A stretch of 64,000 nucleotides of DNA from assembly GCA_000004985.1 (NCBI GenBank), contig GG738890.1; one strand, given 5' to 3'. The stretch is from Naegleria gruberi (taxonomy: Eukaryota). Below are positions 1,817-36,989 of this stretch, piece by piece. A program made the translations under genes and the position numbers. The notes beneath the pieces were generated by a model that saw only the letters and a program-made list of their open reading frames with translations, did no database searches and was not told where the DNA came from. How positions within the stretch are numbered: the stretch's first letter is position 1; each line of letters begins with the position of its first letter.

Positions 1817-1895
1817 ATAAACAATTCTAATTTGACAAGAAACATTGTAACGCATTCCAGAACTGAACTATTAGTACAAAAGTCAACTCAAAAAA

Positions 1896-2636: not shown

Positions 2637-2727
2637 TGTTATGATTGTCATCCCATAGAATTCTCTCATCAGGACTTCATTAAAATATTTTTTCAATTTA
2701 TTTTTTCCATTTGCAAAATATTAAAAA

Positions 2728-4938: not shown

Positions 4939-5201
4939 ACATATTATACGACAATATCATAATACTAGCTCAAATTTAAAGTCCACCATTTCTTCAAGTT
5001 CCTCGAATGGATGATTGTCTATCAGGAAATGAGGTCCCTCTTCCAAGGCATGACCTAATTAATCCATAGTAAAATAATTCAAAGATATTGTTGTAAATAA
5101 CAGTTCCGAAGCCACCCACAAAGTACCCACCTCTGCAATTTCCAAAATGCAATTTAAGGAGATGCACACAGAATAGATTCTGATGGGCAAACTAGAAAAA
5201 A

Positions 5202-6878: not shown

Positions 6879-6937
6879 ATCTATTATCGATTCTAAACTT
6901 TTAAAACAAAGAACTCATTCATTTTGACAAGAAAAGT

Positions 6938-8351: not shown

Positions 8352-8530
8352 TTTTTTTTAAATTTTTTGATTGAATTGCAAAATTTGAAAATATTTTGAA
8401 AATTTAATTATTAATATTTAATAATATGCATGTTGGCCATATATCAAATGACAGTGGCAGTTCCAATAAATAAGATACATGGATCTATAATTCAGACGAT
8501 GTCAATAAATTAAATTCAAAACTATTTCAG

Positions 8531-9325
8531 CTATTCTACATGTTGTACAATGTCAATCAAGTGACGTAAATCATGACAAATGAAATCTGGCTCATATTTC
8601 TCAACACATTCAGTATGCTTATCATCCCAATCAGTTTCTTGAGTATAGAGACAACTGAGAGCTCCTGCCTTCTTAGCACAAACAATATCATGAAATGAAT
8701 CACCAATCATTATCATATTCTCAATGGGAACATTCAATTCTTCTGCAATTCGAGTAAGACATTGAGGATTTGGCTTGTAAGGTAAATATTCTCTTCCATG
8801 TAATATTGTGTAAAAATCCGAATAATTACTTCCCAATTTTTCAATAAATAATTGCAAGGTACTTTGTGAATTTCTTGTAACAATTGCAAAATGTTTCAGT
8901 GGTGATTTTTCATCCAATTGTAACTTTTTCAATTCATCCAAAGTTTCAAATAGGTATGGTTGAAATTCCAATTTGTCATTGGCCTCCGATTCTACCCTAT
9001 GAATAATATCAAATAATCTCTTCTTTTCCTCTTCATCATTCAAACTATGAATATGATCCAACACATCGATAGGAGCACTGATACCAGTCAAGAGTCTCAT
9101 CTTGGCAAAATCAATAACAGGTACAGTTAAAGTGCCATCCATATCAAAAGTAGCCACTCGGATCAATGGCTTTTTAATCGATTGTTCATGAACAAAATAG
9201 TAGGGTTTTTCATCTGTTGAGTGAGAGGTTGAATTAACAAAAATCTTCTTGTAGAGTTGATTAAAGTGATTGTGGTGATGTTTTCTGAGAACGGAGAGGT
9301 GGGAAGGACATGTCTTGTGAATCAT
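8531..9325 (-). CDS. HAD-superfamily hydrolase/phosphatase
   Basis: HAD motif I 'VATFDMDGTLT' and motif IV 'IMIGDSFHDIVCAKKAGA'. The ORF-track start at 9370 is a TTG. The ATG at 9325 has caaaaaaATG context. Confidence 0.6.
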   Translation of the reverse strand: MIHKTCPSHLSVLRKHHHNHFNQLYKKIFVNSTSHSTDEKPYYFVHEQSIKKPLIRVATFDMDGTLTVPVIDFAKMRLLTGISAPIDVLDHIHSLNDEEEKKRLFDIIHRVESEANDKLEFQPYLFETLDELKKLQLDEKSPLKHFAIVTRNSQSTLQLFIEKLGSNYSDFYTILHGREYLPYKPNPQCLTRIAEELNVPIENMIMIGDSFHDIVCAKKAGALSCLYTQETDWDDKHTECVEKYEPDFICHDLRHLIDIVQHVE

Positions 9326-9461
9326 TTTTTTGATTATTTTCAATCTATTTTCAATGATTCTTTTACACAACCATGTTGAGATGATTGTTAATTGGCACCA
9401 AGTTTACAATAATTGTTTGGCAGGAGAAATAATAAATTTATTGTTGTACAAAATCTAGAGC

Positions 9462-10268
9462 TTAATTTTCATTAGCCATGACATAGGCAATAATGTCTCG
9501 GAGAGAAATAACTTTAACTGGATGGAGTTGCTTGTCACAAACATACATTCTGTGAATTCTGTTGGCAGCCAATCTTCCAATAACAAATCCTAGTTCAGTT
9601 TCTTCAGAGCATGAAATGGCTGGATGACTTTCATTATATGATTGTTCTCGAATATGTTGGACAAAGGTGTGAACTCCTTGATGGAGAGAATGATAAAGAT
9701 TAGATGGATTAATAGCCTTAATGTCTCTTGCTGATAAGTTTCCAATCAAAATTCCTGTAGCATCAACAACAGCCAAACCACTGACCTTCATTTGTTGCAT
9801 CTTTTTGAAACAATCAATAGTTCTATTGTGTTTTTCAAGAGTAATAACTGGAGAGACACCTAAATCAGCAGCACCAACTTTTTGATGAGCAATGTCACCC
9901 ATTTGTTTTTGATGAAGAGCAAGGAAATTGACAATTTGTGCTTGAGTCAAAATACTGACCATCTTTCCGTGGCTATCAATAACTGGACAACGGTGTGACT
10001 TTTCCTTGACCAACAAGGTACAAGCATCATAGAGTGATTTATCATCTCTAATTGGAGTGAATGGATTGTGAGCAAAGTCAGTAATACCTCCTATTTGTTG
10101 ATCTTGGAATTTAGAAGCAGTCTTCAATCTAGAGAAAATGTCATTACCTTGTCTTGTTTCAGCTTCTCCAAAAAGTTCAACCAAATAAGCCAAAATATCG
10201 AGAATATCAACCAAACCGATACATTCCTTTCCCTTCATGACTGGAGCAGAAACAATACCAGAAGACAT
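9462..10268 (-). CDS. CBS-domain pair protein
   Basis: 268 aa. Repeated CBS-like units ('GLVDILDILAYL', 'GLAVVDATGILIGNLSARDI', 'ISLRDIIAYV'). Real ATG at 10268. Confidence 0.55.
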   Translation of the reverse strand: MSSGIVSAPVMKGKECIGLVDILDILAYLVELFGEAETRQGNDIFSRLKTASKFQDQQIGGITDFAHNPFTPIRDDKSLYDACTLLVKEKSHRCPVIDSHGKMVSILTQAQIVNFLALHQKQMGDIAHQKVGAADLGVSPVITLEKHNRTIDCFKKMQQMKVSGLAVVDATGILIGNLSARDIKAINPSNLYHSLHQGVHTFVQHIREQSYNESHPAISCSEETELGFVIGRLAANRIHRMYVCDKQLHPVKVISLRDIIAYVMANEN

Positions 10269-11439
10269 TAATTTCTAATTTTTCAAAGAGTTTGAATATT
10301 ATCCGTTTTTTTGATATTAATTAAACAAATGATGAAGAGAGTGATAATAGAGCGTTGAAGATGTGCAATATTAATTCGAACAATTGTTGTTGCCAATATT
10401 AACGTTAAGATTAATTATTGTATTGTGTTGTTAATAATAAAAATCAATGTTTTTCCATCATCGTAGAAAATAAAATTCAAGTCATCACGGATCTTCCTAT
10501 AATACCTACCTCCAAAACATCATGTAATTTATCTTCGTATTGGAAAGTAATCAATTCTGTTGGCTTGGCGACTTCCTTGACCAATGTTTTTCTGAGCAAG
10601 CTAAATAATTCCTTCATTTTTTTTTAAAATCTTTAAAATATCGGTTAATAGGTAGATGCGACCCTTAAATGGACTATTTAAAAATATAAAAATGATATTA
10701 TTTAAATTCACAACGTTGACTTTTTGAGTTTTGTGTTGAAAGGATGGTGCATGAATATAATATATTCATATTTTTCATTACACAGCCAATCTGATTGTGA
10801 AATACACGAAAGAGTTGTTTCTGTTTTGTGAGTAGACAAGAAACATGTTCCAGTTTTTAAAGATTTGATTCAATAGAAGAAATATCTTTCAGAGAGATCC
10901 TTTGTACAATAGAGACTTTTTTATTGAAAACTACTAAACAATTTCTAATCTGATATTATTATACAATTGTGGTTTTGTGTTCTTGATATTAGGAGTGCTG
11001 TGGATTTACAATTCTGCAAATGCTATAAAGTGAGGGGAATAATTATCAGCCCTCTTGTGACTCTACTATTCTCAATAATAATTGAAATGAAAAAGTGCAA
11101 GAGGGCTCTCTGAGTCTATAATCATAATAGCTGAAGTATTCATTGCAGTAGGTTTCTTTTTTTTAATTGAACAAGAGACAATCATCACATTCAAGCCAGC
11201 TCTCTTTCTATTTATATTTTAGGAAATGCCTCTTTCAAATTTTGAAACAAACTCTTGTCTATTTGTATTTTTGGTAAATGTAACTTTCATATTTTGAAGC
11301 TGCTATCTAAATTTTTAATTTTCATGATCATGAGAGTTATATAATCAATAAATATTTATTGATCTTAATTGATTCGAGGATGAATCTGTACTGTTGCTTT
11401 TTACTGGCCCTAGTTCAGAAATCAGATGCAACAAGGGTT

Positions 11440-11475
11440 GAAGTGATTGATATTTCACAATTTAAGATAGTGAAT
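11440..11475 (+). promoter_or_regulatory. Conserved 36-nt block immediately upstream of 5S rRNA (copy 1)
   Basis: GAAGTGATTGATATTTCACAATTTAAGATAGTGAAT recurs with 4 mismatches at 24691..24726 directly upstream of the second 5S copy. It contains a TATA-like ATATTT about 25 nt upstream of the 5S start. Confidence 0.35.
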
Positions 11476-11593
11476 GGCTACGGCCATATCACGATGAATG
11501 CACCTCATCCCGTCCGATTTGAGAAGTTAAGCATCGTCGAGCCACATCAGTACTGAGGTTGGAGACAACTTGGGAACCTGTGGTGCTGTAGTC
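11476..11593 (+). rRNA. rrn5: 5S ribosomal RNA
   Basis: 118 nt beginning GGCTACGGCCATATCAC. Conserved 5S elements are present: the loop A/box A region, 'CCCGTCCGATTTGAGAAGTTAAGC', and '...GGGAACCTGTGGTGCTGTAGTC'. The 5' and 3' ends form the 9-bp helix I. A T5 run follows as a Pol III terminator. Identical second copy at 24727..24844. Confidence 0.85.
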
Positions 11594-11823
11594 TTTTTCA
11601 TTTTACCTTATGGATTATTTAATTATTTAGATATTGATCTGTATTAGGTTATAAATTCTACATTTGAAAAAAAGCAACATTCAATCCATGAAATCGTCCT
11701 TATAAACAGCCTTATGAAAGCCTTAGTGACAATTTCACTCTTGAGCTTTCGGTTTGTTTCAAGGTGGTTCTTATGTGAAATAACTTTTTCAAAATCCAAC
11801 ATAATGTTTCTATTATTTAACAG

Positions 11824-11998
11824 AGCGAGAAATCATACCAGATGAATCCTCACAGGAAAAAATTGAGAAGGAGGGCAACAACCACTTTGATTATTGACCA
11901 AATTCCATTGGCTAATCATCCTCTGAGTGCAAGGAGGAGAGTTTCCAGATTCACATTTCAGTCTGCATGATCTCTGAAATGTCCTTCAAGGTAAGTAT
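11824..11998 (-). ncRNA. U1: U1 spliceosomal snRNA
   Basis: The minus strand reads ATACTTACCTtgaagg..., the canonical U1 5' end complementary to 5' splice sites. A stem-loop II 'CCTTGCACTCAGAGGATG' (U1A-loop-like UUGCAC) follows. An Sm site AATTTTTTCC precedes a 3' stem-loop (GAGGATTCAT/ATGATTTCTC). The 3' end is approximate. Confidence 0.75.
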
Positions 11999-12284
11999 GA
12001 AGAAAGCAAAGAGTGTAAATTGGAACAAATCTTTTAAACCTTTCAATATGTTTGGTTTTTGAAAACTGAATTATGGTCGTTGTTTGTTGTTTTATGATTT
12101 GAGTTCTTTGATATTGTTGAACATGAAGCAAACACAGAATTGACATAATTACATTGAAAATTAAGTATGATGAGAATTTAACTAGAAGATAATAAAGAAT
12201 GGGTCAAAAAATTATTGAATATTTACATTTTCAGTTTATTTACAATGATTGCCTAGGTTTACAAAATTTTGAGTTTTATGGAGA

Positions 12285-12500
12285 CTACCACTTTTTGAAT
12301 TGTTTGTTTCTCATTTCTAAGGTGTTATGTGATTGAGATTTGAAAGTTTTGCTTGTTTCACTTCCAATAGAATTCAATGTTTTGTAATCAATTAAATTTC
12401 TTCTTCTTGTTCCACCAACAATATTATCCAGAGAAATTTCGGAATTAAATTGTGAAGTATTATTGGAGGAATTATACATATTTCTTCTTGTTGAGACCAT
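12285..12500 (-). CDS. Small basic S/N-rich hypothetical protein (paralog A)
   Basis: 71-aa ORF with A-rich ATG context. It shares the motif NIVGGTRRRNLIDY with the divergently oriented ORF 12728..13027. Confidence 0.3.
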   Translation of the reverse strand: MVSTRRNMYNSSNNTSQFNSEISLDNIVGGTRRRNLIDYKTLNSIGSETSKTFKSQSHNTLEMRNKQFKKW

Positions 12501-12727
12501 TTTCTAATTGTTATTTTGTTATTTTCTTTTGTTGTTGATTTTCATTAAATTTCCTTTCATCAAAATATTAATAGAAAAATTCAAATTCTTGTGATGAGTG
12601 GAAAATCCACCAAAAATTGGAATCACAAAATTAGTGGAAATCATCATGGAAATAAATAGATAATTGATCGGATGATGAAATTTCCACAACAAAACAAAAT
12701 AACAAAATAACAAAAACTAAGAGCAAA

Positions 12728-13027
12728 ATGCCAGCTAGAAATACCTCATCAAATACTTCTTCATCTTCCGAAGGTAGAATTCCAACAAAAACAGAATGGA
12801 CAAGATCTAAACCAATTGATTTATCTAAAAGATTACCATTATTTGATATTGATACTTCAAATATTATAAGTGGAACAAGACATCGTAATAATATTGATTA
12901 TCATCATGCAAATTTAAATGGTAAACAAATTTCAGTGAAAAGATCTTCGAAAAATTCAATTGAAAAGAGAGCTAAACAACAATCGAACACCACTAATAAG
13001 AAGATTACCAAATCGAAAAAGATGTAA
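12728..13027 (+). CDS. Small basic S/N/K-rich hypothetical protein (paralog B)
   Basis: 99-aa ORF with caaaATG context. It contains NIISGTRHRNNIDY, 11 of 13 identical to the motif in ORF 12285..12500. Confidence 0.3.
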   Translation: MPARNTSSNTSSSSEGRIPTKTEWTRSKPIDLSKRLPLFDIDTSNIISGTRHRNNIDYHHANLNGKQISVKRSSKNSIEKRAKQQSNTTNKKITKSKKM

Positions 13028-13379
13028 ATTACAACTTGTAATAAATTCAGTAAATTGTAAATAAAATGTTTGAAATATAGATGAAGTTTCAATTTAGAAT
13101 TGATCAGAATATGAGAAACCAAAATTTGCATCAAGCAATTTAACATGACAAATGTTCAATAAGTATGAGGTTGATCAACCTTTACACTTTCTCCAACAAA
13201 CCTGAACAAACAAGATTCGTCCAAGAACTCTTGAATTCGCTGTTCATGCAGTCAAAGACTGTAGCGGGATTGTCGCCATATTCCTGGCAGGCTTCCCGTC
13301 CATTGCAACCAATAGAATATCATGTTTTTCCCATCTCTCAATATTTACAAATTCTTCAATGCTTGAACATACTGGACAA

Positions 13380-13870
13380 CTAGAAACCGACCTATTGCCC
13401 ACTCACCCAAGAAAATCGTGATTTGAAAGGTTCCTTCATTTTTATTTAATAAGTGAAATGGCCTAATTGACTAAACTTGAAATTAATCAGAATTTTCTTT
13501 GTGATCATGGTGAACTGAATTGAAACAACTGACTCATCTCTGCATTTCTAATAATAATATTAGCGAAACTGGTGCAAAATATGTTGCTGAATTGAAATAA
13601 GTAATTCATTCTTGTTGAACTGAACAAGTTGACCAATCTCAGTATTTGCAACAATAACATTAGTTCCAAGGGAGGTAAATTTATTAATGAGATGAGTCAA
13701 TTATTTTGATATTAGTAGAAATGGTGTTGAATTTCTCAATTTTAATGAACTAGAACAATTGGAGCACCTTAACATTTCTTGGAATTATATTGGTGATGAA
13801 GGCATTTGCTATAAGCAAAATGAAACATTTACTTTTTCTCGGTGTAAGGGTACCTCTATTCTCTTTCGAA
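13380..13870 (+). pseudogene. Decayed RNI-type leucine-rich-repeat gene fragment
   Basis: Translating the plus strand gives LRR units interrupted by stops and frameshifts: 'LTHLCISNNNISETGAKYVAELK*', 'NKLTNLSICNNNISSKGGKFINEMSQLF*', 'EHLNISWNYIGDEGICY'. These match the repeat consensus of the intact LRR gene at 49795..51012 (LTNLDISNNYIGETGVEYVSEM). Confidence 0.45.
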
Positions 13871-13941
13871 TGGAATGTATTATTATAGTAAAATTCCAAA
13901 CAACCTTGAAAATCTAGTAAATTTGGTAAATGTAAAATGGA

Positions 13942-14015
13942 TACAGCGAGCGGGGCTTGAACCCGCGACCTTAAGCGTGTTAGGCTTACGATCTAACCAA
14001 CTGATCTATCGCTGC
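13942..14015 (-). tRNA. tRNA-Val (anticodon AAC)
   Basis: Minus strand GCAGCGA-TA-GATC-AGTTGGTTA-GATC-G-TAAGC-CTAACAC-GCTTA-AGGTC-GCGGG-TTCAAGC-CCCGC-TCGCTGT-A folds as a cloverleaf. The acceptor has a G1-U72 wobble. T-loop TTCAAGC. T-run downstream. Confidence 0.85.
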
Positions 14016-14193
14016 TTACACTCAGTACAATAATTACCTTAATGAAATACGAGTTACAAATGTGGCAAGAAACAAGCTTAGTTGTAAATGTTGTTAGTAG
14101 CCTCTCCAGTTTTACAATCAAATACTAAACAGAGGATGATTCAACACGAAAATCTCAAAATATATTTATTAGTACTTGAAGCAAACCGTTTTT

Positions 14194-15453
14194 TTAACAG
14201 ATCAATAAATTAAGCAAGACGAGCAAAGCAAGTAAAGCAACAGAAACTACATATCTATCAGATTCACTTCTTACATTATATGAAGTATCAGTTGCAATAT
14301 CACTATTGTCATATCTCAATATCATTTCATTATATCTTGATTTTCCAAGGTTAAGTTTGAGTGTACATTGAACACTACTTGATCCCAAAGCGAGAATTGG
14401 TTGTTCACACAACACAGTTCCACTACTGCTGTAGAATGACAACTTTTTAATATCAATACCAGGTGTCACTTCATATTGTCCATTGAAAAGTGTGAATGAA
14501 ATCTTGAACGGAGTATTCTCTGAGATATCTTTTTGTACGGTGATAGTGCCTCTCTCAATAGTAAATGTGGAAAGTGAAAAACTTGGGAGTGGAATATTAG
14601 GAACGTCTTGATCAGCACTCGTTAATGCTGAGAATTTAATAGAATATGGTTTACCAGAACTCATTGTTGGAGTGAATTTGAGAATGGTAGATCCTCCAAC
14701 AATATCATGATAAGTTTGGTAATCTCCAAAAGTGCCACCTTCAAAACTGATTTCACCCTTTTGCAAAGTGTCCAATTCGTTGAACTGATCTAACAATCTG
14801 ACTTCAAAACTAATCTCCTGACCATAGAAGAAATATGGTACGTGCTTCATGGCTAGATTAGTTGGAAAGGCACCAATTGCAAATTTGGTAAATTTTGGCC
14901 TCACACAAGACATTTGAATGTTGAATCTCAATGAAGTACTGGCACGTGTTTGAGCAATCAAATATGCCTTGCCTGGAACTTTTGATGGAAATCGAACACC
15001 TTCGGTAGGATTCGATGTACAGGTAAGAAAATTTGAATTGTAGGACTTCAAGCCATTGAAAGAAAATCCTTGGTTGGCCATGGCCTTATTCTTGTTTTCT
15101 TCATCAACGAGATAGTAGACGAATCCAGTTGTTTGTGAGGTGGATTGAATATTGACTAAACTAATGGAAGGTACTTGATTGGAAATGGAGCAACTTTCCA
15201 TTGACGAAAGGACAACCCAACCATCGGCAGCCTTTGGACAAGCTTGTCCATTGCAGCCACAAGCAGGGCATGTACACTGTTGAACATCTCTTTCTTGAGA
15301 AATTGTTGGTGAGAAAAAAGTTTCATTAGAAACCTGATGAAAGGAAGTTTTTTCAAGTAAATTTGTTGGTACTTGGAAGGAAATTTCAAACTCGTTTGCA
15401 GCAATAATTTGTGCAACTAGCAGCAAAAGAAACGCAAATGTCAACAACTTCAT
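14194..15453 (-). CDS. Secreted/GPI-anchored cysteine-motif hypothetical protein
   Basis: N-terminal signal peptide MKLLTFAFLLLLVAQIIAANE. Cys cluster CTCPACGCNGQACPK. C-terminal hydrophobic tail VVSVALLALLVLLNLLIC. The ORF-track start at 15465 is a TTG. The ATG at 15453 has aaaaaaaATG context. Confidence 0.5.
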   Translation of the reverse strand: MKLLTFAFLLLLVAQIIAANEFEISFQVPTNLLEKTSFHQVSNETFFSPTISQERDVQQCTCPACGCNGQACPKAADGWVVLSSMESCSISNQVPSISLVNIQSTSQTTGFVYYLVDEENKNKAMANQGFSFNGLKSYNSNFLTCTSNPTEGVRFPSKVPGKAYLIAQTRASTSLRFNIQMSCVRPKFTKFAIGAFPTNLAMKHVPYFFYGQEISFEVRLLDQFNELDTLQKGEISFEGGTFGDYQTYHDIVGGSTILKFTPTMSSGKPYSIKFSALTSADQDVPNIPLPSFSLSTFTIERGTITVQKDISENTPFKISFTLFNGQYEVTPGIDIKKLSFYSSSGTVLCEQPILALGSSSVQCTLKLNLGKSRYNEMILRYDNSDIATDTSYNVRSESDRYVVSVALLALLVLLNLLIC

Positions 15454-16111
15454 TTTTTTTAACAAGCACCAATCGTCTAGTTTTTACAAAGGGCAATGAA
15501 TCTCATCAATCTGTCAATTGTTAGGAAAGACGTCAATTACTATTACTGGGACAAATAAAGCTTAATAGAAATACCTTACTATTTTTGTTTTTTTGAAAAG
15601 CACCGAACAGGCAAGTACGTGACTGCTTTGATGTAAAAAAACAAATGGCAAGTAAGTTGAATAACAAATTTAGTGCAACTATTTGATGGCCATCAGTTGT
15701 TTAATTGGTGAGCAACTGACAGGTTGAATTGGTCCTCCAAAAAGTCAAATTATCGATGAAATGTGAATCTCATAAGTTGTTAAACAACCAAAAAAAATTA
15801 AACAACTTGCCATAATGTTCTTGCACTAGCTAATAATATACAAGAGAGAGGCAACTCCTTCAACTTTGATGGTAGTTAACGTAATTCGATGATAAACAAT
15901 GCATGTGCTTCTAGAAATATTTAGTCCACATGCTACAATGGTTATTTTGTCATTGAAATTACTTGTATCAGTCTTGAAGTTCAACAGTTCTCCTTATTCC
16001 TTTTTTTTAAATATATTGATATGCAAAGATTTTGGAACTTGGAATTTAAAGTTAACATTTGCACTAATTAAATTAAATTTAACAAAGAAAAAACAAAACT
16101 AAACTTAAACA

Positions 16112-16675
16112 ATGGGAAACACTAATCGTTGGAAAATGGAAGAACCACAGCACCTGGCACCTGTTGTCACAAATGTTCAACGAAAAAGGGAATTAGGTGG
16201 AGTGATCAACTTGTCAGAATTCAAGGAATTGCCAATGGAAATTCAGCTACATACACTTACCTTTCTTCCAATGCAAAGTTTGACTGATTTATTACTGGTA
16301 TCCAAATTTATGAATGAACAATTATTGAAATATGATGAAATTTATCGAGTTTTTTATTCTGATTTCAGAAAACGTGCGGTGCAAGAAAAACTTGATTGGA
16401 ATACAAGGAGTTATTATCCTTTTAATCACAATTACATACATTATTATCCTCCTATTATACCTGTTTCTCTGCCAACAACAATTATACCAACAACTAGTGT
16501 GATTGAAGAACAATTTGACAGAGATCTACCTCTAAAACTGGAAACTCTTGTAGAGAGTCATCTTTTAGAGAGTGCCTATCAACAATTGAGTTATGTTGCC
16601 AACACACATATTCAAAACAGGATGAATCAAAAAGTGATGATAGAAGAAATGAGTAATATGACCCAATCTGCATAA
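16112..16675 (+). CDS. F-box-like hypothetical protein
   Basis: 187 aa. 'LPMEIQLHTLTFLPMQSLTDLLLVSKFMNEQL' is F-box-like. acaATG start. Confidence 0.4.
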   Translation: MGNTNRWKMEEPQHLAPVVTNVQRKRELGGVINLSEFKELPMEIQLHTLTFLPMQSLTDLLLVSKFMNEQLLKYDEIYRVFYSDFRKRAVQEKLDWNTRSYYPFNHNYIHYYPPIIPVSLPTTIIPTTSVIEEQFDRDLPLKLETLVESHLLESAYQQLSYVANTHIQNRMNQKVMIEEMSNMTQSA

Positions 16676-16730
16676 TAAATAGTCATTCTATCTTATTATT
16701 TAAAAATTTAAAAGAACAGAGTAATGAAAA

Positions 16731-17759
16731 TTACCAATATCTACTTCTTGTCTCCTGTGTGGGCAATACCTTCCTCAACACAAATAATGAATATAGGAAA
16801 GGGAATTCCAATTTTTCAATAGAATCAAACTTGCTACTGAGCTCGAAATATTGAACTCTGCAATCAATCAAATCTATTCCTCCGTACAAGTAGAATTCTG
16901 GTATTATTTCTTCCAAATATTGAGTTATCATACTGTTGGTCACCTTTTTTTCCTTGTCACTCTTCATACCTACCAATCCAAGAAATCGATTCTTATCCAA
17001 TAGATATTCGTATAAATTCTTTTCTGCTTTCACCTTTTCAAAATAACTTATCATTTGTTTACAAATGTTAAATGATTCAATTGAGGAAACATCAAAACAA
17101 TAGAACAAAATGTTACACTGTTGCATTTGTCCTACGTTATATGGCACAAATCGATTTATGCCAGGAATCTTAATTAATTCAAGGTTATAATGTTCCGAGT
17201 AATCAAATCTAGTGGTCAGATAGTTAATTTGATTACTGAATCTTTTTATCCAAGTTGACTTTCCACAAGATCCGTATCCAGCAATTCCAATTTTAGGTTG
17301 TTTTTGTTCTCCCACTACCAACTGTCCACTTTTAATGGCTCCTCTGATTCTAGGAACAAGATTGTCATGAAAATGAACTAGGGCACTATGTACATTCAAT
17401 CTCATTGGTTTCAGTAGGCAATTTGGTTGTTTCCCTCTATTTTCTAACTGATCCTTCCACAAGAGTGGTTGAAATATCCAGTATTTAGCAAAATTCTTAC
17501 TCACTCTCATCAATTTGATAATATCTGAATTTGGCAAATATCTCATCACATTAATGACCAATTCATACGGTAGCATTCTCTCCATCAATGATTGATTATT
17601 TTCATTAAATACATTAGGATCATTTCTATCTAAATATTCACTCTCTTGATCCATTAATTCCAACTCTTCATAATCAATTTCGATCGGAATGATCTTCTCC
17701 AAATTTAAATCATCAAGAATGATTCTATTACTGGAAAGAGTTGTGTGTTGTTGACCCAT
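16731..17759 (-). CDS. F-box domain fused to divergent Ras-superfamily GTPase domain
   Basis: 342 aa. F-box 'LPYELVINVMRYLPNSDIIKLMRVSKNFAKYW'. P-loop 'GIAGYGSCGKST'. The G3 motif reads DVSS instead of DxxGQ and G4 reads MKSD instead of NKxD, so the domain may be catalytically impaired. aaaaaaATG start at 17759. Confidence 0.55.
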   Translation of the reverse strand: MGQQHTTLSSNRIILDDLNLEKIIPIEIDYEELELMDQESEYLDRNDPNVFNENNQSLMERMLPYELVINVMRYLPNSDIIKLMRVSKNFAKYWIFQPLLWKDQLENRGKQPNCLLKPMRLNVHSALVHFHDNLVPRIRGAIKSGQLVVGEQKQPKIGIAGYGSCGKSTWIKRFSNQINYLTTRFDYSEHYNLELIKIPGINRFVPYNVGQMQQCNILFYCFDVSSIESFNICKQMISYFEKVKAEKNLYEYLLDKNRFLGLVGMKSDKEKKVTNSMITQYLEEIIPEFYLYGGIDLIDCRVQYFELSSKFDSIEKLEFPFLYSLFVLRKVLPTQETRSRYW

Positions 17760-18034
17760 TTTTTTAGTGTTGGTTGAGAGATTTGTTATTATTAGAAGAA
17801 GAATTTATATTCTTCTGTTGTGTGGATTAAAATGGTGAGAAGGTTAATTTGAGAGATTCTAATCTTGTTCCATTTTTTTTAATATTTAATTTTATTAAAT
17901 ATTATTTATAAGATTAAAAATGGAAGGATAAACCAAAATGTCTTCATAAGTCTCTTAAAAATACAAGATTCAAGAGGTTTTAGTGGGATTAATGTATTTT
18001 ATGAATTTTAAAGTGGAAGATAGATTAATGTGTC

Positions 18035-18160
18035 GGGGTCTTGGCGCAGTCGGTATTATTAATAGATTTTAGGGTAGGTAACGCTCTCAATCTACCTCAA
18101 CGTCGGTAGCGCGTAGGTCTCATAATCCTAAGGTCGTGAGTTCGATCCTCACAGACCCCA
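18035..18160 (+). tRNA. tRNA-Met(CAU) copy interrupted by a 53-nt insertion in the D-loop
   Basis: Identical to the intact 73-nt tRNA-Met at 36917..36989 and 25622..25694 (minus), except for an insertion at 18055..18107. The insertion is ATTATTAATAGATTTTAGGGTAGGTAACGCTCTCAATCTACCTCAAC plus GTCGGT, which duplicates the 6 nt preceding it. CTTTTG follows the 3' end. Confidence 0.6.
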
Positions 18161-18320
18161 ACTTTTGCCCTTTCTTTTGCTTATTTTGCATCCTATCGAA
18201 CGATCATCACCATAGTTTGATCACCAATATCTTTACAAGCAAAGGGAGCAATTTCTAGCTGGTTTGTTTTGCTTGTGGTTAACGTTGATATTACAGTTGA
18301 GTAACAAACATAAAATAAAA

Positions 18321-20378
18321 ATGCTCAACAATGTTCATCATGTCGATCATCAAATATTGAACGAAATGGATGACTACTTTTCAAGAAGGAACAAACTCTT
18401 TGATCAATTCAAAGAAAAACGAAGAAGAGAATTGGGAAATAAAATCGGGAAGGAAATTACCATCACAATAGATAAAGATGTAGTGAAGGGGAAAGCCTTT
18501 GAAACGAGCCCATACAAAATAGCATCCGATCTTTCCAATGATCAATCTATGGATCATCTTATTGCCAAGATTAATGGTAAATTATGGGACATGAATAGAG
18601 AGTTGGAAGGAGATGGTCGATTGGAATTTTGTTCTGATTGGAATGATTTGGAGGTGAGGAGAGTTTTCAAGCGTAGTTCTGCATTTGTGTTGGGAGCAGC
18701 TGTGGAACAAGTATTCAAATGTTTGGTCAGTGGTGGAGCTGTACTTGAGGATGATTATGGCAAGGGAGGTTTCTTTTATGAGAATTTTATGGATGAAGTA
18801 GTTAGAAATAGCTCTATAAATGATCATTCGAAAATCAAGAAAGAAATAGAGAAGATCATTGAAGAAAAACACCCATTCGAAAGATTAATTGTGAGGAAAT
18901 ATGAAGCTCTTGAATTATTTGCAGGAAACAAATTCAAAATTGAGCTCTTGAATGAAAAGTTTAAAGATGACGATTTCCTTTGCGTTTATCGTTGTGGATG
19001 CTTCATAGATACCTCTGTCGGCCCACATTTGTTGCACACTGGACAAATAGCATCTTTTGAAATTATATCAAATACTCGATTTCTATCTGATACAAAGAGG
19101 GAAATTTTACGGTTTTATGGAATTTCGTTTCCAACTGTTCAATTAAAGGAAGAATGGAAAATAATGACCCAAAAACTCAAACTTTGTGACCACAAAAAGG
19201 TTGGAAAGGATCAAGAGCTGTGGTTCTTTCATCCACATGCCCCTGGAATGGTTTCACTCCTTCCTCACGGCAAGAGAATATGCAATTCTGTTCAATCTCA
19301 ATTACGAGAAGCTTATTGGAGGTATGGATTTGCAGAGGTTCAAAGCCCCATTGTTTTGAATAAGGATCTGTGGTATTATCAATCAGGTAGTAGGAATCAG
19401 TGGTGGCAACAATACAATTTCGCTCTGGAAATTGATAAGGAGTACTATATACTCAAACCATACAACAAACCTATTCACTGTATTATGTATCGGAACAAAT
19501 CCAGATCTTATAGAGATCTACCAATTAGATATGTAGAATTTGGCTCAGTATTTCCGGATAACATCAAACCTTTTAGGCTGAATGGCAGGTTGAGAAGTTT
19601 CCAAAAAGATGAGTCAACCATTTTTTGCCAGTCAGACCAAACCAAAAAGGAAGTATTGAATTGTCTTCAAATGATGGGAAGTGTATATAACAAATTTGGA
19701 TTTGAATTCAAGATTGTATTTTCCACAAAACCTGTTAGTTTTTATGGTGACAATCTGGAATGGATCAAGTTGGAAGGTATATTGGAAACTGCCCTAAAAT
19801 CATTGGGTCATGAATGGGAAAGAGACGAAGGAGGGGCTCCTTCTCTCGGTCCAAGAATTGAGTTTTATGTTTCAGATAATTTGAAGAGGTTTATTTACCT
19901 TTGTGGAATAATTCAAATGGACTTAATGACACCACGTTTTTTCAATTTGACTTATACCAGTTCAGACAATTCTGCAGAATCAAAACCCATCTGCATCAGC
20001 AGTACCATCTTGAATAACACTGAAACTTTCATGGCTTTATCTGCTGAACGTTATGGTGGAAAGTGGCCTTTTTGGCTTTCTCCTAGACAAGCTATCATCA
20101 TTCCAATTTGTGAAAAGTGTAGTGAATATGCTAACAATGTTAAAGATAGAATTCATCAGGCTGGATACTATGTGGACGTGGATATGAGCTTTCATACGAT
20201 AGAAAAAAAGATTAGGAATGCTCATTTAGCTCAGTATAATTATATTTTAATAATTGGCGTCAGTGAGATGGAAACTGATTGCGTGAATGTAAGAATAAGA
20301 GATGGCGAACAAGAAGGAGTTAAATCTATTCAAGAATTATTGGAAGAATTCGAAGTTAAAATTAGGGAATTTAAATAA
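18321..20378 (+). CDS. Threonyl-tRNA synthetase-like protein with degenerate catalytic and editing sites
   Basis: TGS domain ('ITITIDKDVVKGKAFETSPYKIASDLS...IAKINGKLWDMNRELE'), class-II core ('YRDLPIRYVEFGSVFPDN...LNGRLRSFQKDESTIFCQ') and ThrRS anticodon-binding domain ('PFWLSPRQAIIIPI...'). Zinc/active-site residues are substituted: MNCPGH becomes YNKPIH, FGSCHRNE becomes FGSVFPDN, HRAILGS becomes MALSAER. The editing motif HSxAH becomes RSSAF. The ORF-track start at 18264 is a TTG. The ATG at 18321 has aaaataaaaATG context. Confidence 0.7.
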   Translation: MLNNVHHVDHQILNEMDDYFSRRNKLFDQFKEKRRRELGNKIGKEITITIDKDVVKGKAFETSPYKIASDLSNDQSMDHLIAKINGKLWDMNRELEGDGRLEFCSDWNDLEVRRVFKRSSAFVLGAAVEQVFKCLVSGGAVLEDDYGKGGFFYENFMDEVVRNSSINDHSKIKKEIEKIIEEKHPFERLIVRKYEALELFAGNKFKIELLNEKFKDDDFLCVYRCGCFIDTSVGPHLLHTGQIASFEIISNTRFLSDTKREILRFYGISFPTVQLKEEWKIMTQKLKLCDHKKVGKDQELWFFHPHAPGMVSLLPHGKRICNSVQSQLREAYWRYGFAEVQSPIVLNKDLWYYQSGSRNQWWQQYNFALEIDKEYYILKPYNKPIHCIMYRNKSRSYRDLPIRYVEFGSVFPDNIKPFRLNGRLRSFQKDESTIFCQSDQTKKEVLNCLQMMGSVYNKFGFEFKIVFSTKPVSFYGDNLEWIKLEGILETALKSLGHEWERDEGGAPSLGPRIEFYVSDNLKRFIYLCGIIQMDLMTPRFFNLTYTSSDNSAESKPICISSTILNNTETFMALSAERYGGKWPFWLSPRQAIIIPICEKCSEYANNVKDRIHQAGYYVDVDMSFHTIEKKIRNAHLAQYNYILIIGVSEMETDCVNVRIRDGEQEGVKSIQELLEEFEVKIREFK

Positions 20379-20398
20379 CTCTCACAGAAAGCTATTAC

Positions 20399-21649
20399 TT
20401 ATTGAAAAGAATGAAAATCTTGATAACATGCACTAGATTCAAGAATTTCTACTTGGTTAATCACTTGATCAATTGCTCCCTTGAGTGGTTGTGACTTTTC
20501 CACGAAAAGGGCAAAGTTTTTAACTGACTGATTACTGTCATTCCTATAATATTCAATCCATGCCCTTAATTTACCATTCAAAATTCCCAAATGATCAAAA
20601 GACGTAAATGGTCTTCCCCAGAATTGACAAACAATTTCATCAACGTTGAATGGTATCAAGTACTCTTCTGGAAGTTTCTTTGATTTTCTTAAATACTCAA
20701 CCAAAAAGTCATTCAAAAGTTTGATGATAATTTTGTAACAAGTTGCCATATTACCATCAACAATCTTCCACCAATTTTCTGACTGATCTAATATGGAATC
20801 ACTTGGTCGAATGGCCATTTCCAATGCTTGTTTCAACTCCTTACTCGATTCGAGCTCACTAAAAGCACTTCCAAACCATTTCGAATAAGGATAATATTTT
20901 CTTTCCAATAAGAAACACAAACACATCATTTCCCTAACTATTTTCCCAACCAGAACAAAACATCCAAGTCTATCTCCCACAACTCCACATCTTCCAACAA
21001 ATGGAGCTTCCTGTGAAATTTTGGAAAGTTGTATCATTATTTGATAAATCCAAACAATATCTGGATAGTAATTTCCAATTAACTCTCTAATAGGTTTCAG
21101 AATTCCACAATCATGATAGATTCTTCCAGCTTGTCCAATCGCCAATAATTTTTGCTGAGGAATTGACAACCAATACGTGTAATCCCCATTCAAAATTTCT
21201 ATCAACCATTTCGAATAACTAGTTCCATCATTATTCGTTCGTTTGAGAAGATAATTTGAAAAGTAATCTTCAATAGTTGTAATCTGAATCAGTAAATCTC
21301 CCAAATTATCATCAGATGAAGTTCTTGAATTGGGATCTTCTTGATATCTCATCCGACATGGAATTCCTTCAAAAATTGAAGGAACCTTCTCATCTAATTC
21401 CATCTTGATTTTATCTGAAAATTCTTCATACTCATCGGTAAGGAATAAAATAACTCTCGGAGCAAAATCATGATCTCTGCTCATCTCTGTATCAAATCCC
21501 AACACTTCACTACCATAACCAATTAAGGCAGCTGAATGATTTTCATTGAAATTGCCAAAATCACTCTTGTAGAGAATATTAGTAACGATTTGATGATAAA
21601 ATCTCTCGCATAAATCCAAACCTTTCATGGAGCGAACGTTTTCAGACAT
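20399..21649 (-). CDS. Hypothetical protein with Pol-beta-superfamily nucleotidyltransferase-like motif
   Basis: 'GYGSEVLGFDTEMSRDHDF' fits hG[GS]x9-13DhD. Two in-frame ATGs (21664, 21649). The second has aaaaaaATGtct context and is preferred. Confidence 0.4.
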   Translation of the reverse strand: MSENVRSMKGLDLCERFYHQIVTNILYKSDFGNFNENHSAALIGYGSEVLGFDTEMSRDHDFAPRVILFLTDEYEEFSDKIKMELDEKVPSIFEGIPCRMRYQEDPNSRTSSDDNLGDLLIQITTIEDYFSNYLLKRTNNDGTSYSKWLIEILNGDYTYWLSIPQQKLLAIGQAGRIYHDCGILKPIRELIGNYYPDIVWIYQIMIQLSKISQEAPFVGRCGVVGDRLGCFVLVGKIVREMMCLCFLLERKYYPYSKWFGSAFSELESSKELKQALEMAIRPSDSILDQSENWWKIVDGNMATCYKIIIKLLNDFLVEYLRKSKKLPEEYLIPFNVDEIVCQFWGRPFTSFDHLGILNGKLRAWIEYYRNDSNQSVKNFALFVEKSQPLKGAIDQVINQVEILESSACYQDFHSFQ

Positions 21650-21909
21650 TTTTTTAAATTGCATTTTACAATGAAACAGTTTTCAATTCTAGATTTTAAC
21701 TTGATATCACATTGTGATGAGACAAATTTCAAAGATCAAATTCAATATTAAATAACCCATGCATAAGATCGAAACCTGGCTTTGCTAGACATTTTTTTAG
21801 AAATGGTACAAAATGCATGTGTTTATTTCAATTCCAACTTAATGTTGTTAGAATAACTGTTTATGAAGATCGATAGATCTGTCAAATGTTTGGAGTTTTG
21901 AACTGTTCT

Positions 21910-23173
21910 TTAATAAACAGCTTCTCCAGCATAAACTTGATTCTCAATTCCACCCTCTCCTTGAGCAATTTTGAAATATCCAGACATTCCCCAATTTGGA
22001 CCCCATGAATTGGCAGCTAACCAATAATTAGAACCTCCCTCAACTCCAAATCCAATTAAGGCAACAGCATGTCCACCAAGAACTGTGTTTTCAATGTGTT
22101 TATAGACACCAGACTTGTAACTATAGAAAAACAAAATTAGAATATTTGAAAAACTATAATTCAACTCACCCTGTAAGATCCCTGTAGACTGTGAAACCAG
22201 CTTGTACGCTGCCATATGTCATGATTGCAGTCTTGATATTATTGATACCTGAAATATAAACAGTATTTTTGGCCTTATACTTGCTCATGGACATGGAAGC
22301 AATCTTGCATTGAGTTGGACAAGTTCCAGAGGAGAAGGTTCCTCTTCCACTAGCATATGGAATACAACTGTCAAGTGGTGTTCCAGTATTTTCCAAAAAT
22401 GTCCAAGAATATTTCAAATAACCTCCTTGACAGGCCTTATTCATTGTATCGCATTGAACTTGATATTCTGGTGAGAGGACAACATTGGTTTGACCATTGG
22501 TGGCAATGCACAATCTATGAGCCAATACATAATTTGCAGCTATTAGTTTTAAAAATTACCAAAAAGGAAATTTAAAATGTTGAAATTATAAAAAGTAGAG
22601 AAATTAATAAATGAAATTGTAAAACTTAAAAAACTTACAGAAAGCCCAACAAGCACCACATGTTTGTTGATCTCTAATTGCTGGAACGCATCCTTTCCAT
22701 TGAGTTCTTGCATCGAAATTCATTGGAATATCAATTCTTGTTTCAATATTTGCCATTCTTGGAGTGTCTTCATCAGAGCTCATCAATGAAAGACCAAATA
22801 GATTATCTCTAAGTTGTGAAATGGTCATATTATCAAATCTAGAGTATTCAGTTGCCTTCCATCCATGAGTATGATTGGAATTAATTCTATCAATCAAAGA
22901 TTTGTCATTGACAGGAGTGTTGGCATGAGTGTGATTAGCAATTGGATGAGTTGGATGAACAGGATGAGTGCTATTGTGCTTTGGTGGCATTGGTTTCTTA
23001 TTGTTTCCTTTGGAAAGTTCAATTGGAGTGACCATTGTCAACATGAAGGTGAATAATACGAAACAGACAATGCAACTGAGAACAAGGAATGTATTAGAAG
23101 ACTTTCTTCTAGTAGTAGCAAATGATTTGTTTGAATTGTTATTCATTTTGTTTTTTGTTATTGATTCAAACAT
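21910..23173 (-). CDS. Cathepsin B-like papain-family cysteine protease, 3 exons
   Basis: Exon 1 is 23173..22639 and carries '[10 protein letters not shown]' (catalytic Cys). Intron 22540..22638 (99 nt, GTAAGT...CTAATAG). Exon 2 is 22539..22170 and carries '...[13 protein letters not shown]...'. Intron 22121..22169 (49 nt, GTGAGT...TCTATAG). Exon 3 is 22120..21910 and carries '[11 protein letters not shown]...[15 protein letters not shown]' (catalytic His/Asn). Joined 1116 nt = 372 codons. The N-terminus has a hydrophobic stretch [20 protein letters not shown] (signal anchor). An alternative start ATG at 23146 has acaaaATG context. Confidence 0.8.
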
Positions 23174-23802
23174 TCACACTTTGCATTCCACTATTTATTC
23201 GAAACCTAAAAGACCGCAAGAGATAATGAAAATAATAATGAAAATACCCCTCATTACCCAAGAGCAGGTATTATTGTTCCTAATGGGAATGGTTTTCTCT
23301 TAAACTTGTTGTTGGAAACTCTTCAAGTTGCGAAGAGATAATGTTTCGTCCCAAATTGTTCATCAGATAACATTCCAATAAAGAAAACCATTTTCCAAAT
23401 GACAAGATTCAGATAACAAATCATTACAAATCAACAATATTCAATATAATGTTGTTAAAAAACAACTTACAATGCATCTGTGTTATCCACATTTTTTGAA
23501 AATGCAAAAAATCGAATACCAAAAAGCTTCATTTCTAGAAGAGGAAAGTGACAAATTTGTATTGTGGATTTGTTGTCCAATAGCATCCAATTTTTTTTTT
23601 ATTAATTGAGAATAGCCGATTGAGTATCTTATCTAATGAAATTGTAAGGGAAAATCAATGAAGGAGAATATGCACCAACTTGATTCAATCTCTTTAATTT
23701 AATCTTGATTTTATCTAAATTGCAAACTCTCAATGATATTTTCAAATTGTTCCAAGGTTCAGTAATTAATATAGGATTTATTAGAATGAATTCCATTACT
23801 AT

Positions 23803-24441
23803 TTATTGTTGTCCTGAAACAGCTTTCCATGCAGGTCTTGTTGAAATCTTTTCCCACCAAGCTTTAACAAGTGGACGATCCAACAATAAATTACCCAATC
23901 CAATAGCGAACAACAAGTTTCCATATGGTAAGTGATACAAATCGGCTAAGGTGAATTGATTTCCACCAATGAATTCTTGTTTAGCCAACACTCTTTCATA
24001 GGCATCCAAATTGAGTGCTAACTTTTCACTCAATTGTTTGACACGAGTTTCATCTGCAGCTCCATATCCCATCATGCCCTTAAATAACTTTTCGAAAACT
24101 AAACCAGAGGCATTTGAATCAAAGTAAGCAGTCTCAATGGAAGCACCTTGTTCGAATAGACCCAAAGCTTTGAGCTCGGTTGGAATGAGTTCAGTTCCTT
24201 GGCTCTTATGTTTGGCTTCCAAGTAACGACAGATGGCACGAGATTCATAGATCAAGAAACCATCATCTTCCAAGACTGGAATGACACCAAATGGATGTTT
24301 TTCCAAGTAGGATGGTGACTTGTGTTCGCCCTTCATTAAATCAACAGGAACAAGCTCATATTCCAAACCTTTCTCCTTAATTGTGGTCAAAACACGTTGA
24401 ACACAAGTAGATTGAGCAGCACCATAAATTTTGTAGACCAT
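23803..24441 (-). CDS. Glutathione S-transferase
   Basis: 212 aa. The N-terminal thioredoxin-like GST domain ('KIYGAAQSTCVQRVLTTIKEKGLEYELVPVDLMKGEHKSPSYLEKHPFGVIPVLEDDGFLIYESRAICRYL') is followed by an alpha-helical C-terminal domain. aacaaaATG start. Confidence 0.8.
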   Translation of the reverse strand: MVYKIYGAAQSTCVQRVLTTIKEKGLEYELVPVDLMKGEHKSPSYLEKHPFGVIPVLEDDGFLIYESRAICRYLEAKHKSQGTELIPTELKALGLFEQGASIETAYFDSNASGLVFEKLFKGMMGYGAADETRVKQLSEKLALNLDAYERVLAKQEFIGGNQFTLADLYHLPYGNLLFAIGLGNLLLDRPLVKAWWEKISTRPAWKAVSGQQ

Positions 24442-24690
24442 TTTGTTATTTGTTAATAGTATATAATACAGTTAAGTTGTTTTTTTGTGATTGAAAATGC
24501 ATAATCGTTAGTGTGCCATTTATGGTGGATTCTGTACCGAAACCAAAGCGCTGCCGTGAGCACTAATTATTGATCTGTGGAATTTGCGCAAGAAATGGTT
24601 GCCATTTCATCCTCTTGGAAACTTCACAATCTGTCATTAAGAGAATGATTTTATGTATTTCAAAGCATTGCAATTTCAGAAATTTCAGGT

Positions 24691-24726
24691 GAAGTGATTA
24701 ATATTTCACAATTTAAGAAAGAGAAT
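24691..24726 (+). promoter_or_regulatory. Conserved 36-nt block immediately upstream of 5S rRNA (copy 2)
   Basis: GAAGTGATTAATATTTCACAATTTAAGAAAGAGAAT. See copy 1 at 11440..11475. Confidence 0.35.
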
Positions 24727-24844
24727 GGCTACGGCCATATCACGATGAATGCACCTCATCCCGTCCGATTTGAGAAGTTAAGCATCGTCGAGCCACATCA
24801 GTACTGAGGTTGGAGACAACTTGGGAACCTGTGGTGCTGTAGTC
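24727..24844 (+). rRNA. rrn5: 5S ribosomal RNA (second copy)
   Basis: 118 nt identical to 11476..11593. Followed by TTTT. Confidence 0.85.
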
Positions 24845-25087
24845 TTTTACTTATCAATATTGCTTATTGGTCAATCGTCCAGTTGCTTCTCTCATTCTTT
24901 CCATTATTCCAAACAAAGTGTTAACCACTGATAAAACTGCTCCATCATCAATAATGATCAATTAAGATTTGCTACATGTTCAAAATAAATGACATTATTA
25001 TTTATTAAAATACCACAAACATTTTGCCATTCTTCACTCTAGAACAAACAGAATAAAAACAATGTTCCTTATGCAATTCTGAAAACC

Positions 25088-25275
25088 ATCTTTCTCGGCC
25101 AATTGGCTTTGATCGAGTGTAGTATCTGTTCTTTTCAGTTTAATAGCTGAAAGCAGCCCACGGGTTGCATTACTATTAACTCAATTTTTTGTAGGGATCA
25201 GGGTTTGAGCTTGATTGCTCACTTTGATTGGTTTCAATCAGACATTGCACAAACCGTCAGATTAGGAGCCACCCA
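25088..25275 (+). ncRNA. U2: U2 spliceosomal snRNA
   Basis: ATCTTTCTCGGCCAATTGGCTTTGATCGAGTGTAGTATCTGTTCTTTTCAGTTTAATAGCTGA... matches the conserved U2 5' region, including the branch-point-interacting GUAGUA. Sm site AATTTTTTG. 3' stem-loops end ...GGAGCCACCC. Length ~187 nt. Confidence 0.85.
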
Positions 25276-25621
25276 ACTCTTTTAATTAATTGAAAAATCA
25301 TTGAACAAAGACAATCTCAATCAGAGTAAAATTGAGCTTTTTACAAATTCCGAGCATGTATGATGACGAAGATATAGTAAGCATGCTGAGGGACTCAAAA
25401 CAGTCATTGATTGGTGTTGATATTGAACAATTTCTTGTCGACATTTGAATGCAGTTGGCAAGTGCGAAAAGGAAAATGAGAAGTGGAACGATTTCAAGAA
25501 TGAATTATTTGATTAATTGAAAGTAGAAACAATTAGGAAATTGATGTTGTTTTTTGTTCTCCTTCATAACATAACTATTGGGATTAGCAACACTTAAAAG
25601 CTATTGAGAGGATGCAAAAGT

Positions 25622-25694
25622 TGGGGTCTGTGAGGATCGAACTCACGACCTTAGGATTATGAGACCTACGCGCTACCGACTGCGCCAAGACCCC
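25622..25694 (-). tRNA. tRNA-Met (CAU), elongator-type
   Basis: GGGGTCT-TG-GCGC-AGTCGGTA-GCGC-G-TAGGT-CTCATAA-TCCTA-AGGTC-GTGAG-TTCGATC-CTCAC-AGACCCC-A. Anticodon CAT. T-loop TTCGATC. No initiator-specific A1-U72, A54 or A60. Confidence 0.85.
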
Positions 25695-25797
25695 GACACA
25701 TTATAAACCTTTTACAGTTTCTTCATTAACCTTAACTGAGTTCCTAGGTTTACCTAATAGGAACAGTTTTCTTTTGTTCATATTCAATTCGAAAAAA

Positions 25798-26943: not shown

Positions 26944-27043
26944 ACACTCATTATTCTAATACTTTGAAAAAGATGAATTTGATCAAGTGGGAGTTGTTAA
27001 CTTTTTGTAAACTGTCAATAACAAACAAGCAACGTTTAAAAAA

Positions 27044-28246: not shown

Positions 28247-28438
28247 ATTAGACTAAACGATTGTTACATTGACAGTTAAATAGTTTATTTTTCATTCTAA
28301 TTGGCTTTATCGAATAATAATTCATTTCTAACTGAATTACAAAACTGTTCAAAACAACCACTCAATCAATAAGTACTATTTTAGATCAATTTCGTTCAAT
28401 TTTAATTGACAGGAGGTTACATCAACTCAACCAAAAAA

Positions 28439-34133: not shown

Positions 34134-34216
34134 AATAAACTGCCATAATAGTTTGCTTACCTAATTAAATTAAATTATTCATTGCGAAATGTTGACAGTT
34201 GTCACTTTAAAAAAAA

Positions 34217-36226: not shown

Positions 36227-36331
36227 ATAAATTATTATTAACTGGATATTATTTATCGATTGCTTATTTACAGTATTTGGAAAGATATTGAGATCGCAAT
36301 GATTCATTGGATATGTACAGATCAAATTCAA

Positions 36332-36916: not shown

Positions 36917-36989
36917 GGGGTCTTGGCGCAGTCGGTAGCGCGTAGGTCTCATAATCCTAAGGTCGTGAGTTCGATCCTCACAGACCCCA
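36917..36989 (+). tRNA. tRNA-Met (CAU), elongator-type
   Basis: Sequence identical to 25622..25694. Shares a 52-nt upstream block with the interrupted copy at 18035. CTTTTG terminator. Confidence 0.85.

Follow-up and report, generated by a model that had tools for sequence, protein, structure and literature searches.

Two described proteins in which a Ras-superfamily domain is joined to an adaptor motif of a cullin-RING ubiquitin ligase are Rab40, which combines a Rab with a SOCS box (CRL5), and RhoBTB, which combines an atypical Rho with a BTB (CRL3). Fusions of this kind are a rare wiring of membrane identity or signalling to ubiquitination. A further described system is TbFRP, a FYVE–F-box–Ras-like GTPase that is restricted to Euglenozoa and for which no N. 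gruberi orthologue was found (Adung'a and Field 2013, PMC3593210). For Naegleria, Herman et al. 2021 (BMC Biol 19:142, PMC8296547) re-annotated the Ras superfamily of N. gruberi and N. fowleri and described the F-box–Rab-like genes as Naegleria-specific expansions (Supplementary Material 4, Table S8), with some two dozen such genes in N. gruberi alone and a birth-and-death evolution that has left pseudogenes in these clades. GTPase-dependent ubiquitination was proposed for the families in the same work (supplementary files 4 and 10). Functional studies of F-box–Rab-like proteins were sought in the literature, and only this paper and the one on TbFRP were found.

The window analysed here is a stretch of 64,000 nucleotides from N. 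gruberi (assembly GCA_000004985.1, contig GG738890.1). Its GC content is about 33%, and its ORFs are dense and mostly unbroken. One of them, gene 1, encodes a protein 100% identical to N. gruberi NEG-M XP_002673544.1 / EFC40800.1, which is recorded on a 350,200-bp scaffold under the name 'F-box-containing protein'. Because the annotated protein matches the ORF exactly, gene 1 consists of a single exon. For an open frame of 342 codons to arise by chance in DNA of the local composition (33% GC), the probability is about 2e-12. Gene 1 was also looked up by its exact sequence in the contig index, which returned no entry. The N. gruberi sheet of Table S8 (PMC8296547) lists XP_002673544.1 as a 'Rab' with the additional domain 'F-box', and the architecture of gene 1 is therefore already known. 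What we add is a corrected motif map of gene 1, a candidate myristoylation signal, the recognition of a second gene in the window (gene 2) as a predicted Rho-like pseudoGTPase, and a flag on a probably chimeric NCBI gene model. In the accessible part of the supplementary text of PMC8296547, neither the term myristoylation nor a motif analysis occurs. The features of gene 1 are as follows.

16731..17759, minus strand: gene 1, F-box–Rab-like protein, complete single-exon ORF of 342 aa
17739..17759, minus strand: N-terminus MGQQHTT, candidate N-myristoylation signal (Gly2, Thr6) by sequence
17457..17573, minus strand: F-box, aa 63-101, LPYELVINVMRYLPNSDIIKLMRVSKNFAKYWIFQPLLW (Pfam PF00646, PF12937)
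17256..17279, minus strand: G1 or P-loop GYGSCGKS, aa 161-168, intact
17199..17222, minus strand: switch I remnant YLTTRFDY, aa 180-187, with T183 aligned to the G2 Thr
17154..17174, minus strand: true G3 position IKIPGIN, aa 196-202 (Rab1A counterpart WDTAGQE)
17082..17105, minus strand: strand beta4 FYCFDVSS, aa 219-226 (Rab1A equivalent VVYDVTD)
16956..16970, minus strand: G4 GMKSD, aa 264-268, Lys and Asp kept, Asn of NKxD replaced by Met
16830..16844, minus strand: G5 ELSSK, aa 306-310, SSK kept
16791..16805, minus strand: family motif FPFLY, after G5

Both domains of gene 1 were detected by Pfam. The F-box (PF00646) was found at aa 63-94 with 27.5 bits against a cut-off of 20.5 (E 2.6e-6), and the related profile PF12937 scored 24.2 bits, just under its cut-off of 24.3 (E 2.9e-5). 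The Ras domain (PF00071) was found at aa 161-277 with 23.0 bits against a cut-off of 21.6 (E 6.3e-5), which is marginal for a single sequence. A PDB sequence search gave a weak match to the F-box of FBXW8. With a profile built from five family sequences, the structures of Rab1A, Rab1B, Sec4, Ypt1 and Ypt6 were matched, the best being Rab1A at E 2.9e-23. An AF2 model of gene 1, for which the alignment held only five sequences, was poor (mean pLDDT 45.6) and was rejected as a structural basis. In a Foldseek search of the PDB with this low-confidence model, the best matches were almost all small GTPases (E about 1e-4), Cdc42, Sec4, Rab5/6/9 and Ras among them. The Pfam, profile and Foldseek results therefore confirm that gene 1 combines an F-box with a Ras-superfamily domain, as the original prediction had held. 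Its view that the combination is unusual also stands, although the architecture was known from Table S8 of Herman et al. 2021.

The protein encoded by gene 1 is almost certainly a member of the Naegleria F-box–Rab-like family. Four relatives at 32-33% identity were recovered, namely XP_002672750.1 of N. gruberi (annotated 'rab family small GTPase'), one protein of N. fowleri and two of N. lovaniensis. Two of the four were scanned with Pfam and gave F-box matches as well as Ras matches with E values between 1e-23 and 2e-23, and the other two carry F-box and Ras as precomputed domains. The fusion recurs elsewhere in the N. gruberi genome, where a search for it had been suggested; XP_002672750.1 is one case, and Table S8 lists roughly two dozen F-box Rab-like genes. 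No close orthologue of gene 1 was found, in N. fowleri and N. lovaniensis or otherwise, the best matches staying at 32-33% identity. A third homologue search with the family alignment added only one new member at E<=1e-5, a cut-off too stringent when 5.8 billion sequences are searched. In a scan of JGI metagenomes for the family, none of the 217 pattern hits was confirmed by tblastn. Like the clades described by Herman et al., gene 1 has an N-terminal F-box followed by a Rab-like domain and carries the motifs FYCFD, G[LM]KxD, RVQYFELSSK and FPFxY. It shows no categorical difference from them; it is more degenerate than most, with KIPGIN at G3, no RabF1 motif and a short interswitch. Gene 1 is one lineage-specific paralogue of this family.

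The state of each motif was determined from an alignment of gene 1 with nine paralogues, five of them in the corrected form given in Table S8, and human Rab1A. The F-box residues L63, P64, E66, L67, V68, L75, V86, S87, K88, N89, F90, W94 and W101 are invariant in five family members, and the F-box signature (L-P, E-[IL]-[IVL], a hydrophobic helix 1 and [VI]-[SC]-K-x-[FW]) is found in gene 1. No FYVE domain was matched by Pfam in gene 1, and residues 1-62 contain no Cys. The G domain lies downstream of the F-box and spans about aa 154-325. In its switch I region the RabF1 motif 'IGVDF' is missing in the alignment with Rab1A. T183 lies 17 residues from the Gly of G3, compared with 26 for the equivalent Thr of Rab1A, which makes the interswitch hairpin about 9 residues shorter. 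The original prediction had read G3 as DVSS. That assignment is wrong, as these residues (aa 223-226, 17082..17093) align with 'YDVTD' of Rab1A in strand beta4, and the G3 position reads KIPGIN. Of the key residues only the Gly remains there; Lys has taken the place of the Asp and Ile that of the catalytic Gln. The loss of the Gln was thus correctly predicted, from a stretch that does not contain the motif. Among the ten aligned members, a single one retains the catalytic Gln (WDTSGQE); the others in which the motif is present carry D, N, K or E. G4 reads G[LM]KxD in eight of the nine aligned paralogues, the ninth being one that also has no P-loop, and the Asn of NKxD is therefore hydrophobic in nearly the whole clade. 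At the position of the Rab motif YYRGA, gene 1 has 'QMQQCN'. Its C-terminus (...TQETRSRYW) contains no Cys, and a C-terminal Cys for prenylation is likewise absent from the other nine aligned tails. Judged by these motifs, gene 1 is Rab-like and no bona fide Rab, the Rab features IGVDF, YYRGA and the C-terminal Cys all being missing.

The opposite end of the protein offers another possible means of membrane attachment. N-myristoyltransferase follows a G2/[ST]6 rule, which the start MGQQHT of gene 1 fits, and the protein may be myristoylated. An MG(N/Q) start is shared by nine of the ten aligned family members; in the tenth, MGN occurs internally, at the start of the alignment.

How might such a protein work? 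We tentatively favor, with a rough probability of 0.45, a myristoyl-anchored receptor of SCF, or of a cullin-free Skp1 complex, in which a nucleotide-compromised Rab-like fold serves as the binding module. The N-myristoylated protein would be associated with membranes, and its F-box would dock on Skp1, either within an SCF (CRL1) ubiquitin ligase or in a Skp1 complex without cullin. Docking on Skp1 is the default expectation, since all core residues of the F-box consensus are present. The Rab-like fold would have given up its role as a GTP-hydrolysing timer and would serve as a module that is static, or binds nucleotide weakly, and brings in proteins resembling Rab effectors or regulators for ubiquitination at the membrane. 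A static or nucleotide-compromised module fits better because of the lost Asp and Gln of G3, the hydrophobic residue at the Asn of NKxD and the short interswitch. In small GTPases the Asp of G3 positions Mg2+ and the Gln is catalytic. The classical N-to-I mutants Ras N116I and Rab5 N133I have a very low nucleotide affinity and are nucleotide-free and dominant-negative, and the hydrophobic residue of gene 1 at the Asn of NKxD corresponds to the change in these mutants. Rab40 and RhoBTB are the parallels that we propose for gene 1, in which the adaptor is instead an F-box (Skp1/Cul1) and stands at the N-terminus. There is no orthology between these families. The G domain of RhoBTB is atypical as well, whereas Rab40 has remained a competent GTPase. 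Weighing against the receptor reading, the AF2 model of gene 1 is poor, the Pfam Ras score of gene 1 on its own is only just above the threshold (23.0 against 21.6), the best homologues reach no more than 32-33% identity, and gene 1 might be decaying, being highly degenerate and belonging to clades that contain pseudogenes (Herman et al.).

The F-box could instead act in cis, tying the GTPase-like protein of which it is part to SCF or Skp1, with rapid turnover or regulation as the result, or placing it in a cullin-free Skp1 complex of the Rcy1 type. This alternative is possible but unlikely. F-box proteins are commonly auto-ubiquitinated, which counts in its favor, and yeast Rcy1 works in endosomal recycling as part of a cullin-free Skp1 complex. 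Against it, the substrate-binding module of most F-box proteins that have been characterised is the domain C-terminal to the F-box, the place that the Rab-like fold takes in gene 1. The cis reading draws further on TbFRP, the F-box of which has been linked to the protein's own rapid proteolysis (Adung'a and Field, PMC3593210), and on the alignment between the Naegleria family and FRP, which is collinear from the F-box as far as G4 (E 2.3e-16, hhalign probability 98.7%). FRP resembles gene 1 in having the F-box directly upstream of a Rab-related G domain without the catalytic Gln, and both lineages belong to Discoba. Gene 1 differs from it in having no FYVE domain and in its short acidic N-terminus with an MG start. 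We carried out a crude affinity test with six FRP sequences transcribed from the OCR text of the supplementary alignment of PMC3593210. With a canonical Rab HMM the FRP G domains reached 31-63 bits, compared with 12-31 bits for the HMM of the Naegleria family, and the corresponding hhalign E values were 1.9e-23 and 3e-13. Since canonical Rabs are the better match for the FRP G domains, no specific orthology between FRP and the Naegleria family is shown, and the lack of a specific affinity tells against the support that the cis reading takes from TbFRP. With a collinear alignment and no specific affinity, orthology with euglenozoan FRP was rejected as unsupported, not as disproved. In the FRP of Euglena gracilis, G4 reads 'GLKGD' and G3 'DASGD', and the Naegleria family has 'GLKSD' and 'WDSAGD' at these places. 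The change of Asn to Leu in NKxD is thus common to Euglena FRP and the Naegleria family, and the profile tests gave no specific relationship between them.

Could gene 1 still be a working molecular switch? The original prediction had suggested a GTP-regulated SCF adaptor; in such a protein the nucleotide state would gate the binding of substrates or membranes. The idea is reasonable and was also raised by Herman et al. 2021, but the motif pattern speaks against a working switch, which we consider improbable. The GKS of the P-loop, the Gly of G3, the Lys and Asp of G4 and the SSK of G5 are all retained, T183 stands at the position of the G2 Thr, and the less degenerate paralogues keep WDxxG and TIGVEF. 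Set against these are the change of the G3 Asp to Lys and of the Gln to Ile, the Gln being present in one of the ten aligned members, together with the Met in place of the NKxD Asn, the missing RabF1 and an interswitch about 9 residues shorter than that of Rab1A. By analogy with Ras and Rab mutants, each of these changes alone would be expected to impair Mg2+ or nucleotide binding or hydrolysis.

That gene 1 is a functionless paralogue in decay, a recent product of birth and death in which the frame happens to be still open, is improbable to much the same degree. Barring one paralogue without a P-loop, its G domain is the most degenerate of the ten aligned members, N. fowleri and N. lovaniensis have no close orthologue (at most 33% identity), and pseudogenisation occurs in these clades (Herman et al., PMC8296547). 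Yet the frame of 342 codons is intact at the chance probability given above, the F-box consensus, FYCFD, RVQYFELSSK, FPFxY and the MG start are fully preserved, and Table S8 carries no pseudogene flag for the gene.

The window contains a second gene with a GTPase fold, gene 2, which is cut by the window edge.

63095..>64000, minus strand: gene 2, cut by the window edge, first 73 codons outside
63614..63637, minus strand: P-loop GLPKSGKS, kept
63488..63508, minus strand: G3 position CTMQSMS, against LWDTAGQ, with Asp, Gly and Gln all lost
63098..63109, minus strand: C-terminal CaaX box CSLQ

From 63095 the frame of gene 2 is open up to the window edge. The full protein (P0005), known from metagenome contig L001 and the database, has 366 aa, is 99% identical and carries about 175 aa of helical extension at its N-terminus. 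Its profile and fold are closest to Rho/Rac, the segment 'CSSLTQQGLKSVFDE' is Rho-typical and a CaaX box is present. The switch I Thr position is occupied by Glu and G4 reads TGKD. Gene 2 departs from the Rho/Rac family in its helical N-terminal extension, in the complete loss of G3, in the replaced switch I Thr and in its G4. The spacing from G4 to G5 is about 11 residues below that of Rac1, which suggests that the Rho insert is missing. The CaaX Cys (C363) is present in at least 90% of the rows in the alignment of relatives. Taken together, these motifs make gene 2 a separate, predicted farnesylatable Rho-like pseudoGTPase outside the Rab-like family of gene 1. The original prediction was therefore right in seeing a divergent GTPase fold in the gene at 63095..64000, and its suggestion that this gene may belong to the family of gene 1 does not hold, gene 2 being of the Rho/Rac type with a CaaX box.

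Relatives of gene 2 are few. An exhaustive HMMER search against 1.8 billion representatives returned only 10. One is a paralogue in N. gruberi, XP_002669366.1 (P0006), at 88% protein identity, which is either a recent paralogue or a divergent haplotype of gene 2; it lies on another N. gruberi scaffold (160,583 bp) and is annotated only as 'predicted protein'. Homologues at 27-34% identity (E 1e-24 to 5e-26) come from N. lovaniensis, N. fowleri and one metagenome contig. The other relatives include proteins of the Rho/Rac type, and the motifs of two of these are canonical. Two more distant environmental proteins, P0013 and P0014, have Pfam matches to F-box and Ras, a related Rho-like domain and a CaaX box. 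P0014, encoded on a JGI metagenome contig of 2,940 bp, carries long Asn/Gln-rich low-complexity inserts in its F-box, Rho-like and CaaX architecture. The composition of P0014 suggests an origin outside Naegleria, possibly in an AT-rich amoeba, and hence that the architecture also exists there. Neither gene 2 nor XP_002669366.1 was found in the published GTPase inventory; the accessions and motifs of gene 2 are absent from the accessible part of the Table S8 text.

Extension of gene 2 beyond the window had been proposed as a way to see whether it, too, has an F-box. None was detectable. Pfam gave no F-box match at E<=1 in the N-terminus of gene 2 and its relatives (P0005, P0007, P0010, P0011 and P0012), and an F-box profile aligned to the gene 2 N-terminus with an hhalign probability of 0.2%. 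A greedy full-length hhalign alignment placed 'CFNEIIKFL..SVS' of gene 2 opposite the F-box of P0013 and P0014 with zero confidence. These results bear on a wider reading, in which the Naegleria F-box–GTPases would be membrane-anchored SCF receptors with a nucleotide-dead GTPase fold as the substrate-recognition domain, among them the myristoylated Rab-like type of gene 1 and, if its N-terminus were a cryptic F-box, the farnesylated Rho-like type of gene 2, and in which the fusion would be ancestral to Heterolobosea and Euglenozoa and shared with FRP; an ancestral fusion is hinted at by the G4 'GLKxD' of Euglena FRP and the Naegleria family, and we find the reading as a whole very doubtful. 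Should the F-box Rab-like genes of Table S8 encode SCF receptors on dead GTPase folds, they would represent a novel kind of substrate-recognition module and an extensive regulatory system specific to the lineage.

NCBI XP_002673554.1, a protein of 1666 aa named 'helicase domain-containing protein / RBR-type E3', joins gene 2 to the following ORF.

57612..62852, minus strand: DEAH-helicase/RBR ORF of 1746 aa, downstream of gene 2

The joined model omits the conserved CaaX tail of gene 2, its stop codon and part of the helicase core, and on metagenome contig L001 gene 2 and the helicase/RBR are two separate ORFs. We regard the XP_002673554.1 gene model as probably chimeric. By eye, the ORF at 57612..62852 begins with CCCH-like Cys/His repeats, followed by a DEAH-type helicase core (GHTGSGKST ... 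DEAH). Its C-terminus, as read from the translation, is Cys-rich and RING/IBR-like, and its UniProt name is 'RBR-type E3 ubiquitin transferase'.

A Pfam scan of 20 other large ORFs at positions 14..38367 revealed no cluster of GTPase or F-box genes in this range. The scanned neighbours are housekeeping genes, with GMP synthase, a YchF-type GTPase, ThrRS, an Atg4-like peptidase, a GST and an Nsp1-like nucleoporin. Next to gene 1, on the plus strand at 16112..16675, lies an ORF of 187 aa whose exact protein is absent from a collection of 15 billion sequences. It is convergent with gene 1, the two stop codons being 55 bp apart, and it gave sub-threshold F-box-like matches (PF12937, E 0.01) at aa 38-69, 'LPMEIQLHTLTFLPMQSLTDLLLVSKFMNEQL'.
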